The notes under the pieces: generated by a model
Told to the model about the DNA's origin: nothing
The model's input: only the letters and a program-made list of their open reading frames with translations
Databases searched by the model: none
Made by a program: the position numbers and the translations under genes
NCBI GenBank assembly: GCA_964472875.1
Contig: CAYYMD010000005.1
Span: 7,670 to 71,669 of the forward strand
Direction: 5' to 3'
DNA: 64,000 nt
DNA from: an uncultured Planctomycetaceae bacterium
Lineage (GTDB): Bacteria; Planctomycetota; Phycisphaerae; SM23-33
Part shown: positions 36,294-39,561 of the stretch, in pieces
Layout: each line of letters opens with the position of its first letter
Numbering within the stretch: the first letter of the stretch is position 1

Positions 36294-37379
36294 TCAATCG
36301 ATGGGAAGTTGAGGTGGCCGCGACTTTTTATCGCTTCCAGACTCGGGCTTTGGCTTAGGTGGCTTTACGCCTTTACACTTATATTGCCACACTATGATAG
36401 TCCACTTGTCACGGGTGGTGGGCACCCACCCTGCTGCTAAAGAGTATTCGTCGCTAACGCGACGCGCACGGACATAGAGTTCAAAACTATCGGGCCAGAC
36501 GACAAATCGCACGTACCGCTTATCTTTGTCCGTATGCCGCAACACTCGTTGAAAAAGACTGTGCGGCATTTGGATTCGATTTATTGTTTCGCCGCCTCCG
36601 CGCTTACGGTTCAATACCACTTGTACCCCTCGCCAGTGTGGCTCGACGGTGTATCTAAAATCGTTCGTTCCCAGATTGTGGTTCTGGAAATACTCCGCAA
36701 GCACCTTGCAATCGACAGGGGCTGTTTTGTCCGACCGATTGGGAAAGCAATGTCGAACAATCGCACTGACGACCTTTTTGACGTTATCGTAACTGACATG
36801 ATACAGACGACCCTCCCGGCAAAGAAATAATACGGGCCTGGCGCCTTTCGGCGCCGGGCGGGGATTTGGAAGAGTCACGATTTTTGGTGGCGGCGCTTTG
36901 ACCTTCGCCACCTCAGCCAGCTGTGTCTGGATACGGTCCTCTTGCTGATCGAGCTTACCGATTTGCTCGGTGAGTTTATTGATTTCGTTCTTGCGTTGTG
37001 TCAGGAGTTTTTCAACCTTTTGTTTGAACTTGTCCGGCTCAGTGGGTTCAGATAGCTGCTTTTGCAGACCGGCGATGCGCTGCTGTGTCTCGTCGAGTCG
37101 GCGACGCAATTCAGGCAGATGCTTCTTTTTCTGGTTCCATTGACGAAGCAGTTGATTGATTTCTTGTTCCTGTTGATTGGCTTTCTTCTCGGCCAGCGCC
37201 AGCTGCCGTCTGCTGACTACCGGAATGTCTTGCTCCGCGCGTAAAACCCTCTTGACCGCATCAGCGACATTAAGTTGCGTAACCACCAGCAGAATAACCA
37301 GAATGCCGACAACGTTAGTCATCGTGTCAAGCAGTGAATCGAGACTCCCAATTTCGGTTTTTCGCCTGCGTCGCGACAT
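36294..37379 (-). CDS. ExbD/TolR-like membrane protein with long coiled-coil spacer (paralog B; retains TM Asp)
   Basis: 361 aa. The N-terminus MSRRRRKTEIGSLDSLLDTMTNVVGILVILLVV matches the ExbD/TolR basic patch plus TM helix with the conserved Asp. About 140 aa of heptad coiled coil follow. The C-terminal ~150 aa have an ExbD-like periplasmic-domain pattern and end in the paralog-shared motif W-Y-K-C-G-K-P. Confidence 0.5.
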   Translation of the reverse strand: MSRRRRKTEIGSLDSLLDTMTNVVGILVILLVVTQLNVADAVKRVLRAEQDIPVVSRRQLALAEKKANQQEQEINQLLRQWNQKKKHLPELRRRLDETQQRIAGLQKQLSEPTEPDKFKQKVEKLLTQRKNEINKLTEQIGKLDQQEDRIQTQLAEVAKVKAPPPKIVTLPNPRPAPKGARPVLFLCREGRLYHVSYDNVKKVVSAIVRHCFPNRSDKTAPVDCKVLAEYFQNHNLGTNDFRYTVEPHWRGVQVVLNRKRGGGETINRIQMPHSLFQRVLRHTDKDKRYVRFVVWPDSFELYVRARRVSDEYSLAAGWVPTTRDKWTIIVWQYKCKGVKPPKPKPESGSDKKSRPPQLPID

Positions 37380-37382
37380 GAT

Positions 37383-38189
37383 TTATTTTCCTTCAAAATG
37401 AGACAGATCAATCTTCCCCTCCCCCAGAACGGGAAGTTTACCGACTTGGCATTTATATTTCCATGCCTGATTGCGCATCGGTCTAATCAATCCTATAGAA
37501 TTGGGGCGAACCAGCAGGACCGCAACGCCTTTGCGCCTCTTCGCCGTACGGGAGAACACTTTAGCCAGTTCGGAAGAGTTTCCTATATCTTTCTGGTGAA
37601 TACGTACCGGCGGATCGCTGCTGTGGATTATAACATGGGGGTTGTCGAGTTCTATAAAAGCCGGCTGCATATTAACCCCGGAGCCGCTGGCGCGTATGCT
37701 GACACGCGGTTTCCTCAAAGATTGCTTTTCCTCCAGTTGCTGTTTGAGTTGCTTAATTTTCTCCTGCTGTTTGTGATATTGCTGCTGAAATGTTTGGATT
37801 CTCAGTTTCAGTCTTTCGGCTTCTTCCAGGCGCTTGGCTACTTCGCCGCTTTGCCTTTTAATTCTTTTCAACCGAACCTGTAACTGCTCAAGTTGTTGGC
37901 GATTCTTATTTAACTGATCGTTCAGTTTTTGGGCTTCATCGATTCGTTTTTGCAGTTGAGCAATCTGGTCGCTACGCTCCTTGTCGGAGCGGACCAACTG
38001 CGCATATCGTTGGGCCCGCTTTTTTGCCTCGACCAGTTCTCGCTCCGCTTTGGCTACCGCCTGCGGGTCCAATTGCCCCAGGGCCATAGCCGTGATCATC
38101 AATGTCAGAGTGCCTATTACACACGCCAGGATGCTCAGGAACGGAAACAGGGAAACGATATTCGCATTTTTACGCTTTCGACGGGCCAT
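37383..38189 (-). CDS. ExbD/TolR-like membrane protein with long coiled-coil spacer (paralog A; TM Asp replaced by Pro)
   Basis: 268 aa. The N-terminus is MARRKRKNANIVSLFPFLSILACVIGTLTLMI, a basic patch plus TM aligned to paralog B, with Pro where the Asp sits. About 140 aa of coiled coil follow. The C-terminal domain shares VIIHSSD / AWKYKCQVGKLP with paralog B. Confidence 0.45.
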   Translation of the reverse strand: MARRKRKNANIVSLFPFLSILACVIGTLTLMITAMALGQLDPQAVAKAERELVEAKKRAQRYAQLVRSDKERSDQIAQLQKRIDEAQKLNDQLNKNRQQLEQLQVRLKRIKRQSGEVAKRLEEAERLKLRIQTFQQQYHKQQEKIKQLKQQLEEKQSLRKPRVSIRASGSGVNMQPAFIELDNPHVIIHSSDPPVRIHQKDIGNSSELAKVFSRTAKRRKGVAVLLVRPNSIGLIRPMRNQAWKYKCQVGKLPVLGEGKIDLSHFEGK

Positions 38190-39561
38190 TACCTTTGTTT
38201 TTCTTCCTCAGAGCGCCCCAGTTGAATAAACCGCGCTTCCGCACCTCCACGACGACATGTTCATGCCCGAGTTTTTCCAGCACCCGGTTCAGCGATGCCA
38301 TCCCCTCTTCCAGGCCGGTGAAGCAGCGATGAATTCTATCCGTCGTTTCAGTCAGCGACTGACTTAATTCGGTGTGCGCAGACTTCGAGCGTTCGCTGAT
38401 GGTCTCCATATTCGCGGCTGCTTCCTGCCCGACAACCTCGGCTTGTTCATGTATCGTTTGGGCGATATGCTCCATCTGGGCGATTTGAGACTCATGAAGT
38501 TCGGTAACTTTTTCCTGCACTTGTCTGATTTCGGAGTAAACTTCCGGTGCAAGTTGCCCCGTGGCCGAGGCACCGCCACCACCGTCGTCCAGCCGTTTAA
38601 GCAGGTTTTCGTTGCAGTACTCATCGACCCAATTGAGCAGGTCGTCCTCGCTCTTTTGCAGTGCGTGGGAGGGTATGGCGATTATCAGACTCATCACCAG
38701 CGCCACAAGCGTGGTGTCGAATGCGATGCCGAGCCCGGTTGTTACAGTGCCGAGTTTCGCCTTGAGGTCTTCGATGTCGGCGCCGGAATCCAGTTCACCG
38801 CTGAATCCGCCAACCGCGGCGCTGATGCCGATTACCGTACCAATAAACCCCAGAATAGGAATCGCCCACGTGAAAACGCGCACAAGCGTGTAACTGGACT
38901 CAACGGCATTGGCGTCAATATCAGACTGACTGTTCATCAGCGAGGCAACCTCACCGTTATTTCGACGAGCCGTGAAATGCTCCAGGCCACGAAGTACACG
39001 GTTTATCATGAAACTTCCGGAAGCCCGCACGGGCAACTTTCTGACGTGAGAGATGAACTTCTCGGCGTTGTGAGCAGTTATGGTGTCGGCTATTATATTG
39101 GGCAGGACATCGAACAGCATTACGTCGCGATGTCGTCGATGACGCAGCCATTTAAGCACAAGTATCGCTACCGACCATCCGAATAGAAGAACCAGCACGA
39201 ACGGAACCCACCCGCGCCGCCAGAACAAGTCGTGGAAATAAGTTCCTTTAAAGGGCAGGATAACCACCATGAACGCTGCGGCGATTATCAAGCCAACTAT
39301 AAAACTTCGAAGCGGGCTTACATTAACGCCCGTGCCGCCGAGTTCCGCCACGGCTTTACTGGCTACCTTTTTTGAAGTCTTAGCGGATATTTTCTCCGAG
39401 GTTGTTTCCGCGGGCCTGGCCGTGGGAATCGTCGCTTTAGATTGACAAGGAATTATTACCGTATTCTTACAGTATGGACAACGTGCTTTTTTACCCCTTT
39501 TGTCCTCTTGTGCCCGAAGATCTTTGCCACAGTGTTCACATGTGAATTTAAAGTAATTCAT
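38170..39561 (-). CDS. MotA/TolQ/ExbB-family proton-channel protein with N-terminal zinc ribbon and C-terminal coiled-coil tail
   Basis: 463 aa. N-terminal CxxC-x16-CxxC (CEHCGK ... CPYCKN). There are four TM helices in MotA topology: two N-terminal, then a cytoplasmic loop, then TM3/TM4 carrying the PF01618-type signature [17 protein letters not shown] ... [22 protein letters not shown]. The C-terminal ~130 aa are coiled coil. It overlaps paralog A by 20 nt. Confidence 0.6.
   Translation of the reverse strand: [463 protein letters not shown]

Follow-up and report, generated by a model that had tools for sequence, protein, structure and literature searches.

In a 64,000-nucleotide stretch of DNA from an uncultured Planctomycetaceae bacterium (contig CAYYMD010000005.1; the whole stretch is called the window here, and all positions count from its first letter), we found a trio of co-directional minus-strand genes, A (38170-39561), B (37383-38189) and C (36294-37379). 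On balance, we read this trio as the long-stalk form, belonging to the Planctomycetota, Verrucomicrobiota and Chlamydiota (PVC) group, of an undescribed asymmetric three-component ion-driven motor of the 5:2 type, which would be self-contained and chromosomally inherited and would carry force or a signal from one side of the cell envelope to the other. The kind of motor is already known: 5:2 ion-driven motors (MotAB, ExbBD, TolQR, GldLM, ZorAB) power motility, uptake, envelope integrity, secretion and immunity. The novelty lies in a conserved asymmetric axle and in stalked TolR-type subunits within this class.

Results and Discussion

The two small subunits are built alike. In both B (268 amino acids, aa) and C (361 aa), a basic N-terminus and a single transmembrane (TM) helix are followed by a long helical spacer and then by a globular C-terminal domain; the basic N-termini and single TM helices had been noticed when the genes were first singled out from the bare sequence (the original prediction), and hydropathy and alignments agree with them. 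The TM helix of B comprises residues 14-32 (38094-38150, minus strand; LFPFLS19ILACVIGTLTLMI), with F15, P16, F17, S19, I20, I25 and G26 invariant in an alignment of 41 sequences. That of C comprises residues 16-34 (37278-37334, minus strand; LLD18TMTNVVGILVILLVVT), and here L17, D18, T19, T21, V24 and G25 are invariant among 42 sequences. In a profile alignment of the two helices, D18 of C (in SLLDTMTNVVG) is aligned with S19 of B (in LFPFLSILACVIG). C carries Asp at this position in 66 of 67 PVC loci, while the equivalent residue of B is Ser in 53 of the 67 and Asp in 12. D18 corresponds to the Asp that is essential in ExbD, TolR and MotB; C is thus the axle-type subunit with a membrane Asp and B the one without. 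Ser at the B position, together with Asp in C, is also found in the cyanobacterial orthologs described below (B, LFPFLSVLAC; C, NLDSFLDIL). The Asp/Ser asymmetry is therefore ancient and common to cyanobacterial and PVC trios. The B forms with Asp belong to derived sub-clades of Planctomycetes. They read SLFPFLDIL/M and come from loci L024, L027, L035, L038, L040, L043, L044, L052, L057, L058, L061 and L076, which are labelled Pirellulales, 'Kuenenia' or Anammoximicrobium.

Following the membrane helix, residues 43-160 of B (37710-38063, minus strand) form a continuous, Pro-free, heptad-like helical spacer, which the positive-inside rule places in the periplasm. The helical spacer of C covers residues ~45-165 (36885-37247, minus strand), contains seven prolines in the window copy and ends in a conserved LPNPRPAP. 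Of the coiled coils of about 140 residues that had been proposed for both proteins, the helical spacers hold up, but their length is nearer 110-118 residues and that of C is broken by its seven prolines. The distance from the TM helix to the globular domain has a median of 149 residues in B (range 140-168; 56 loci) and of 150.5 residues in C (range 145-164). The globular domain of B (residues 160-268; 37386-37712, minus strand) has a TolR/ExbD-like fold; TolR is its top match by two independent methods and its best structural match. In C, residues 166-335 (36375-36884, minus strand) repeat the B-type core, Y.RF.VWPDSFE.Y..AR....L.AGW, with an inserted alpha/beta element. The alignment then defines a Pro/Lys-rich tether at residues 336-361 (36297-36374, minus strand), which ends in ..LPID-COOH. 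All of the 67 PVC loci have Asp as the last residue of C, following the Pro-rich segment. This Asp is preceded by I, L or V in each of the tabulated termini (44 of the 67 are shown), as in ..DTID, ..DVVD, ..RKLD and, for the window copy, ..LPID.

By profile comparison, B and C are paralogs: their C-terminal cores align with an HHalign probability of 90% (E 1.8e-6) and their TM regions with 69%. They are ancient paralogs whose TM helices are unequal. Paralogy had been claimed from the outset, on the grounds of shared VIIHSSD and W-Y-K-C motifs; the claim survives and the grounds do not, as VIIHSSD is present in B alone and W.YKC occupies non-equivalent positions in the two proteins. Searches with the full-length B and C proteins against Pfam, NCBIfam, PADLOC and the PDB returned coiled-coil noise only, such as SMC, Rad50 and apolipoprotein, after which trimmed domains were used for the domain searches.

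A (463 aa) is a bona fide MotA/ExbB-family channel subunit with four TM helices. Its residues 190-303 (38653-38994, minus strand), which contain TM3 and TM4, score 32.8 bits on PF01618 (MotA_ExbB; Pfam cutoff 22.9), and a precomputed PF01618 assignment is carried by all listed A homologs. Hydropathy gives TM-like segments at residues 86-104, 118-136, 233-251 and 278-296, in keeping with the four-TM MotA-type topology of the original prediction. TM1 and TM2 form a hairpin (residues 86-136; 39154-39306, minus strand; hydropathy and alignment) with an outside loop of ~13 residues. T242 in TM3 and D282, T283 and T284 in TM4 are 100% conserved among 67 PVC sequences from three phyla. TM3 begins at W232 and the TM4 motif is F281-D282-T283-T284-L285; both motifs are also present in the cyanobacterial orthologs. 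These pore-lining residues, T242 and D282-T283-T284, would face the Asp of the partner subunit.

Both ends of A carry additions. Residues 1-36 (39454-39561, minus strand) are a zinc ribbon of the form C8xxC11-x16-C28xxC31, exactly the spacing first noted, and its four Cys residues are invariant in 64 of 64 full-length PVC homologs of A. The ribbon is predicted to be cytosolic, and the A-family profile matches the zinc ribbon (ZnR) structure of GltJ/AgmX, 7zok_A, weakly over this region (E 0.02). At the other end, residues 298-463 (38173-38670, minus strand; alignment and heptad analysis) form a tail of 166 aa, which runs from a conserved QK-containing segment through a helical region of variable length to a conserved end, LN.VL..LG...VV....R.G. 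Its heptad-like stretch, residues 340-445, bears out the helical tail that had been proposed. Across PVC, the tail measures between 121 and 278 residues. Because the ribbon is cytosolic and the number of TM helices even, ribbon and tail should both lie in the cytoplasm. A additionally gives a weak match to the PADLOC model ZorA1 (E 1e-7), partly via the tail end, and the tail end of the A-family profile a weak one to the ZorA-type chain 8vvn_C in the PDB (E 1.3e-3).

Within a set of 5.8 billion proteins, 1480 homologs of A, 301 of B and 846 of C are detectable, annotated as hypothetical or as generic MotA/TolQ/ExbB. The B-domain family alone comprises 536 clusters among 1.84 billion representatives, nearly all of ~265 aa and of the same architecture. 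A genome scan with one genome per species furnished at least 586 relatives, and synteny was taken from the best 80. Among these best 80, the Planctomycetota are represented by Gimesia, Pirellulales, Thermoguttaceae, Phycisphaerae, Kolteria and metagenome-assembled genomes (MAGs) labelled Kuenenia or Anammoximicrobium, the Verrucomicrobiota by Akkermansiaceae, Prosthecobacter, Luteolibacter and Opitutia; Lentisphaeria are found as well. The taxonomic labels of the MAGs are possibly unreliable. The order A, B, C on one strand is kept in ~65 of the best 80 loci across Planctomycetota, Verrucomicrobiota and Lentisphaeria, with variable neighbours, which answers the question of co-occurrence that had been attached to the original prediction. 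Indeed, B and C co-occur everywhere we sampled. The genome of strain ZRK34 encodes the full trio twice, and one copy is surrounded by tRNA synthetase, PdxJ, Alr and GGT genes; in Gimesia C is retained but unlinked from A-B. The C gene of the Gimesia clade (L084 8001-9107 on the Gimesia aquarii chromosome; also L009, L011-L014 and L016) lies far from A-B and adjoins an oppositely oriented gene for a CbiA/ParA-like ATPase; the A-B pair of this clade adjoins genes for a ROK glucokinase, Ppx/GppA and polyphosphate kinase.

In the search of the neighbourhoods no gene family was found to adjoin the trio consistently; only lineage-specific synteny and generic families appeared. Consequently, the glycoside hydrolase family 95 (GH95) gene (33823-36108) and the sulfatase gene (40175-41578) that flank the trio in the window, whose identities we could confirm, are not informative. 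Only ~5 of the 125 nearest flanking open reading frames (ORFs) match any PADLOC model, and the Pfam content is heterogeneous and of metabolic or housekeeping character; sulfatases are the commonest neighbour family with 6 of 125. These neighbour annotations derive from crude ORF calls and summary counts. In five Verrucomicrobiae loci, A has ~90-130 nt upstream of it, and in the same orientation, a gene for a BatA-type membrane protein of 602 aa (Aerotolerance regulator N-terminal plus vWA/MIDAS; L060 4272-6053, with the equivalent position in L062, L067, L069 and L078). This gene may be related to the vWA 'force transducers' of other PVC loci (PMC12204202).

In a tree of A, the PVC sequences are monophyletic, the verrucomicrobial families cluster and the window A falls among the Planctomycetota, a pattern that fits mainly vertical inheritance within PVC with some paralogy in Planctomycetes. 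No relatives of the trio were found on viral contigs, and no PVC long form on plasmids, where the sole trios were two cyanobacterial ones of a short type. A mobile or viral origin was discarded on these grounds. The G+C content at 36001-40000 is 0.50-0.525 and thereby below most of the window (typically 0.53-0.63). The vertical pattern of the family argues against a recent acquisition.

The two short trios extend the family beyond PVC. A tblastn search of plasmids with A gave relatives with 33-36% identity (E 7e-39 and 2e-34) in Anabaena cylindrica PCC 7122 and Microcystis aeruginosa NIES-2481, which are much closer to A than is any canonical ExbB or MotA. The A-like genes encode 466 and 470 aa, without a zinc ribbon but with the helical tail, and are followed on both plasmids by a 153-aa gene and then by a 231-236-aa gene. 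The PVC profiles score these trios with 213-218 bits for A and, over TM plus domain, with 58-66 bits for B and 75-90 bits for C, which marks the two smaller proteins as spacer-less orthologs of B and C. The B ortholog has ELFPFLSVLAC with Ser in its membrane helix, the C ortholog NLDSFLDIL with Asp; the short C ends differently from its PVC counterparts, in ..GR.(V/I)G(V/I)Q. Since cyanobacteria have orthologs that lack spacers and ribbon, the family is older and wider than PVC, and three features are innovations of PVC: the ribbon of A, the ~110-residue stalks and the Pro-rich tail with its [ILV]-D end. The short B is also the best sequence link to ExbD, yet it stays below threshold (17.8 versus 25.4 bits at best, 2 of 11 members).

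About 20 further short trios in a metagenome scan follow the same Ser/Asp pattern, with three exceptions in which the TM helix of B is C-like and carries Asp. These are L099, L100 and L101, where the B-type helix reads NLESFLDILTCTIG instead of ELFPFLSILAC; in L101, such a B gene is present twice in tandem. The C-like helices suggest that the paralogs have exchanged TM segments or undergone gene conversion. A more distant relative of A, with 273 aa and 95 bits to the A profile, is found on the Rhizobium leguminosarum plasmid pRlBT01d (L116 3755-6548). It is preceded by PP2C-like and FHA genes and followed by a single 245-aa B-like protein that combines an Asp-bearing TM helix with a coiled coil. 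We set this motor-like cluster, which is also unannotated, aside as a relative of the trio because its architecture is a different one, in which FHA and PP2C genes accompany a short A-like protein and a single B-like protein.

The neighbours of the short trios include CARF-HEPN directly upstream of a type III-B Cmr operon, viperin, type I-D Cas, a cyclase of a cyclic-oligonucleotide-based anti-phage signalling system (CBASS) with a 2TM/SLATT effector, type I restriction-modification (R-M), PbeA and mad genes. On plasmid pANACY.03 of Anabaena cylindrica (L086 5312-9502), the trio is situated directly downstream of a CARF-HEPN gene, which is Csx1/Csm6-like (PADLOC E 1.6e-250), and of a type III-B Cmr operon, and viperin lies downstream of the trio. 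On Microcystis plasmid p1 (L087), the short trio comes after methylase, nucleotidyltransferase, SLATT and helicase genes. The cyanobacterial short trio might be a membrane module associated with CRISPR or CBASS.

Proposed Mechanism

By analogy with solved relatives, A would assemble into a pentameric ring in the membrane, and B and C would sit inside this ring as a two-helix axle. We picture the axle as a heterodimer of B and C, in which D18 of C would be the single protonation site and B has Ser at the equivalent place. A heterodimer is the simplest arrangement, since B and C co-occur, the Asp-less TM helix of B is conserved from cyanobacteria to PVC, and the stalks are matched. If fully extended, the ~110 helical residues of B and of C would reach ~16 nm (1.5 Å per residue) and would bring the TolR-fold heads near the wall. 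It is plausible that the spacers span an enlarged PVC periplasm. The Pro-rich tether of C and its hydrophobic-Asp end would then dock to a partner at the wall or outer membrane, as TonB or TolA does; the C-terminal peptide is likely a docking peptide for a partner associated with either the wall or the outer membrane. Ion flow through A at the Asp of C would move the B/C stalk relative to A, and through this movement the inner membrane and the outer envelope would exchange force or a conformational signal. The ribbon and tail of A could couple the motor to cytoplasmic partners or determine its localisation.

With regard to the cellular role in PVC, the non-defence context, the vertical inheritance and the single-unit character suggest envelope housekeeping. 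A Tol- or Ton-like force transduction appears to be the likeliest function; Ton uptake, flagellar rotation and phage defence are less likely as the role in PVC. No pal gene is recorded in Planctomycetes (PMC12204202, supplement), so that a Tol-Pal-like task is conceivable there. One may speculate further, and we do so with clear reservations, that the trio belongs to an unnamed ancient 5:2 branch with an obligate A5:B1:C1 composition and a single protonation site, the short forms of which sit in cyanobacterial defence islands. According to this doubtful but possible scenario, the branch was exapted in the PVC ancestor as a trans-envelope drive shaft, whose ~16 nm stalks and TonB-like tether replace the TolA/TonB transducers, perhaps with a Tol-Pal-like duty in the Pal-less Planctomycetes.

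A number of observations weigh against the motor that we favour. The pentamer and the B:C heterodimer are both drawn by analogy. No TM positions of A or C change with the Ser/Asp state of B, and the spacer of B does not vary in length with that of C (r = -0.03); taken together, there is no co-evolution signal for the B:C pair. Given Asp in B at 12 of the 67 PVC loci, a single-Asp axle is furthermore not universal. The sequence relationship to known axle proteins is distant as well: B and C have no match to PF02472 (ExbD) at E<=1 in the Pfam search, ExbD and TolR are not retrieved among PDB sequences by the B/C domain profiles or by the short-type profiles, and HHalign of B and C with the window's own ExbD is not significant. 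The link to TolR consequently rests on the fold and the TM motif. The term 'ExbD/TolR-like', as originally applied to B and C, is supported at the level of the fold and fails as membership of the Pfam family, for which both proteins remain below threshold. TolB-Pal is reported in Lentisphaerae (PMC12204202, supplement), so that the trio cannot be a simple Tol-Pal replacement in general. Finally, the closest relatives outside PVC, the short trios, are often found in defence islands; together with the weak likeness of A to the ZorA tail, this means that the trio may have a sensing or defence role.

Such a role would make the trio a Zorya-like sensor of envelope breach, in which an idle motor begins to turn when phages damage the wall and either signals via the tail or ribbon of A to unlinked effectors or collapses the membrane potential in an abortive infection. 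We hold this to be unlikely. It is in line with the short trios beside the CRISPR, viperin, CBASS, R-M, PbeA and mad genes and with the two ZorA matches of A, partly through the tail end, which in Zorya is the signalling element (PMC11946911). The defence context is, however, correlative and limited to the short form. PVC trios lie outside defence islands, as the ~5 of 125 neighbours with PADLOC matches show, and are inherited largely vertically in three PVC phyla; matches on viral contigs and plasmids with the long form were not found. Furthermore, B and C have no OmpA or PG-binding (peptidoglycan-binding) domain of the ZorB type, no ZorC-, ZorD- or ZorE-like gene is present at the locus, and the conserved unit contains no effector gene. 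A different objection concerns the axle itself, which could be made of two homodimeric assemblies, an active A5C2 and an inactive or regulatory A5B2. In that case, B would not conduct and would act as a competitor or scaffold, tuning the number of motors or anchoring idle rings. For the related AglQ and AglS the choice between hetero- and homodimer is left open in the literature (PMC9389320), and the missing length covariation and compensatory changes, the separability of C from A-B in Gimesia and the Asp in B of some lineages would all agree with homodimers. We nevertheless regard them as decidedly unlikely: the TM helix of B is among the most conserved segments and keeps its Ser from cyanobacteria to PVC, which argues for a specific packing partner that does not change; moreover, B occurs together with C wherever we sampled, and their stalk lengths are matched within a few residues.

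The stalk and Pro-rich tail of C could also be a built-in TonB that pulls an outer-membrane or periplasmic component during the 'selfish' import of polysaccharides, so that the trio would energise macromolecule uptake. C does join an ExbD-like Asp helix to a head domain and to a Pro-rich extension that is TonB-like and has a conserved peptide at its end; the window trio is flanked by GH95 and a sulfatase, and sulfatases are the commonest neighbour family. Additionally, labelled fucoidan is reported to enter Akkermansiaceae cells and partly degraded glycans to accumulate in the periplasm of Verrucomicrobiota, by a machinery that is incompletely known (PMC13174399). Even so, we consider an uptake energiser very unlikely. 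The sulfatase adjacency is, by our own estimate, consistent with chance in sulfatase-rich genomes, the trio has no constant neighbour among gene families, and no receptor with a TonB box adjoins it. The trio is also present in MAGs labelled Kuenenia or Anammoximicrobium, labels that may be unreliable, and anammox bacteria are not known to forage on polysaccharides. We looked for a link to the Akkermansia mucin-utilisation loci MUL1 and MUL2 and dismissed it, as these consist of different genes. A motility stator, be it flagellar of the MotAB/PomAB kind or an AglRQS-like gliding motor, is in our opinion highly improbable. One MotA-like and two TolR-like subunits do recall AglR, AglQ and AglS, and the ribbon of A has a weak likeness to the GltJ/AgmX ZnR, which belongs to the gliding machinery of Myxococcus (PMC11135422). 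Against this stand the absence of an OmpA/MotB domain from B and C in the profile search, the absence of flagellar or glt genes among the neighbours (top 25 Pfam families), the Asp reported for both AglQ and AglS but not found in B, and the presence of the trio in Akkermansiaceae-labelled MAGs, as A. muciniphila is described as non-motile (PMC12418764).

Locus and Surroundings

The ORF coordinates confirm three tightly coupled minus-strand genes: A shares 20 nt with B, and a gap of 3 nt lies between B and C. The predicted N-termini agree with family alignments of hundreds of homologs (B 'MARR..', C 'M.RRR..'). Hence ribbon and spacers are not due to wrong start or frame calls, an artefact that had initially been considered. 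The gap of ~600 nt between the sulfatase gene and A holds a promoter-like site, TTTTCA-17-TG-TATAAT (39616-39644, minus strand), which is ~55 nt 5' of the start of A. With a 10/12 consensus match only, it would be consistent with an independent transcription unit. The same gap contains an 89-aa ORF with a hydrophobic segment (39882-40151, minus strand).

A separate, complete Ton module occupies 1-5814 of the window on the minus strand. It is of the TonB2/Ttp style and consists of a TonB gene that runs off the window start (~1-620), ExbD (627-1040), two ExbB genes, DUF3450 (2829-3692) and a gene for a TonB-dependent receptor (3721-5814). Of the two ExbB genes, one (1037-1498) is short, and the other (1495-2832) encodes an ExbB-like protein of 445 aa that is extended at its N-terminus by a coiled-coil/periplasmic part and scores 109 bits on PF01618. 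The trio is therefore additional to the canonical Ton system, as the original prediction maintained. Among the flanking genes of the trio, we found no TonB partner and no TonB-dependent receptor. It had also been stated that no TonB, Pal, flagellar or ZorCD partner adjoins the trio, and this agrees with its GH95 and sulfatase flanks.

Significance

If true, a built-in axle with one Asp and one Ser would allow testing of rotary models that assume two equivalent protonation sites. PVC envelopes are unusual, and how the outer membrane is stabilised and constricted and how whole polysaccharides are imported are open questions in this group. A conserved, self-contained motor with envelope-spanning stalks would be a concrete three-gene target in tractable PVC species, open to genetics, cryo-ET and structural studies. 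The short cyanobacterial relatives, in turn, are a candidate for a new membrane-motor defence module, and the whole trio family may exemplify exaptation between immunity and housekeeping. Specialists may find the asymmetric axle, the transducer-like stalk and tether in TolR-type subunits and the link between PVC and cyanobacterial defence islands of particular interest.

Comparison with Known Systems

Our searches of Pfam, NCBIfam, PADLOC, the PDB and the full-text literature turned up no characterised family with the architecture of the trio, and the original prediction, which could name none, was right in this respect. MotAB and PomAB differ by the OmpA-like C-terminal domain, which B and C do not have (no OmpA or MotB match in Pfam, PADLOC and further profile searches), and no flagellar genes are linked to the trio. 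ZorA-ZorB of Zorya is closer in that a MotA-like subunit bears a helical cytoplasmic tail, A gives weak profile matches to ZorA, and short-type relatives of the trio occur in defence islands. However, ZorA has tails that project for ~70 nm, and the PG-binding domain of ZorB is dimeric (PMC11946911), while the A tail of 121-278 residues is far shorter and its partners have the TolR fold. Moreover, ZorC, ZorD and ZorE genes and a conserved fourth gene are missing, and the PVC copies are located outside defence islands.

The ribbon of A has a likeness in GltJ and ZitP, where a small N-terminal cytosolic four-Cys ribbon of a membrane protein is likewise followed by a flexible linker. In Myxococcus, the GltJ ribbon is a cytosolic protein-interaction switch (PMC11135422). 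The Cys residues are C5, C8, C28 and C31 in GltJ and C8, C11, C28 and C31 in A. A has no GYF domain, its match to 7zok_A is marginal (E 0.02), and it has no known counterpart of MglB, the partner of GltJ, or of PopZ, the partner of ZitP.

AglR-AglQ-AglS consists of one TolQ/MotA-like and two distinct TolR-like subunits that are encoded together, and AglQ and AglS are both described with the conserved Asp (PMC9389320). The likeness to AglRQS that was seen at the beginning thus holds for the number of genes, one TolQ-like and two TolR-like, and breaks down at the Asp in both small subunits, where B has Ser, and at the Glt linkage, as no glt genes are linked to the trio. A zinc ribbon, long stalks and a Pro-rich tail are not known among the features of AglRQS. 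Loci from PVC and Kiritimatiellota have been described in which a tolQ-like gene is accompanied by two heterologous tolR-like genes, TMH-tethered vWA force transducers (TMH, transmembrane helix) and a TPR gene (PMC12204202). This is the only published note we found of paired unlike TolR-type genes beside a TolQ-like gene, and it concerns the PVC group as well. The main text of that work mentions coiled coils 0 times; the zinc ribbon was not searched for in it, and the two sets are compared by description only. Unlike these loci, the trio has no conserved vWA or TPR neighbour, the BatA-type vWA gene being restricted to the 5 verrucomicrobial loci.

The last comparison is that with TolQ-TolR and ExbB-ExbD. 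From these the trio departs by the four TM helices of A with a cytosolic N-terminus, zinc ribbon and 166-aa tail, by two different partners of which one is without Asp, by helical spacers of ~110 residues and by the Pro-rich tail of C with its fixed C-terminal peptide. B and C stay below the PF02472 threshold, and no TolA, TonB, TolB, Pal or receptor gene is linked to the trio. With both systems it shares the PF01618 family of A, with pore-lining Thr residues in the last two TM helices and an acidic residue in the last one, as well as single-TM subunits with a basic N-terminus, of which C has a mid-membrane Asp in an 'LLD'-type motif, and TolR is the best structural match of the periplasmic domain of B.

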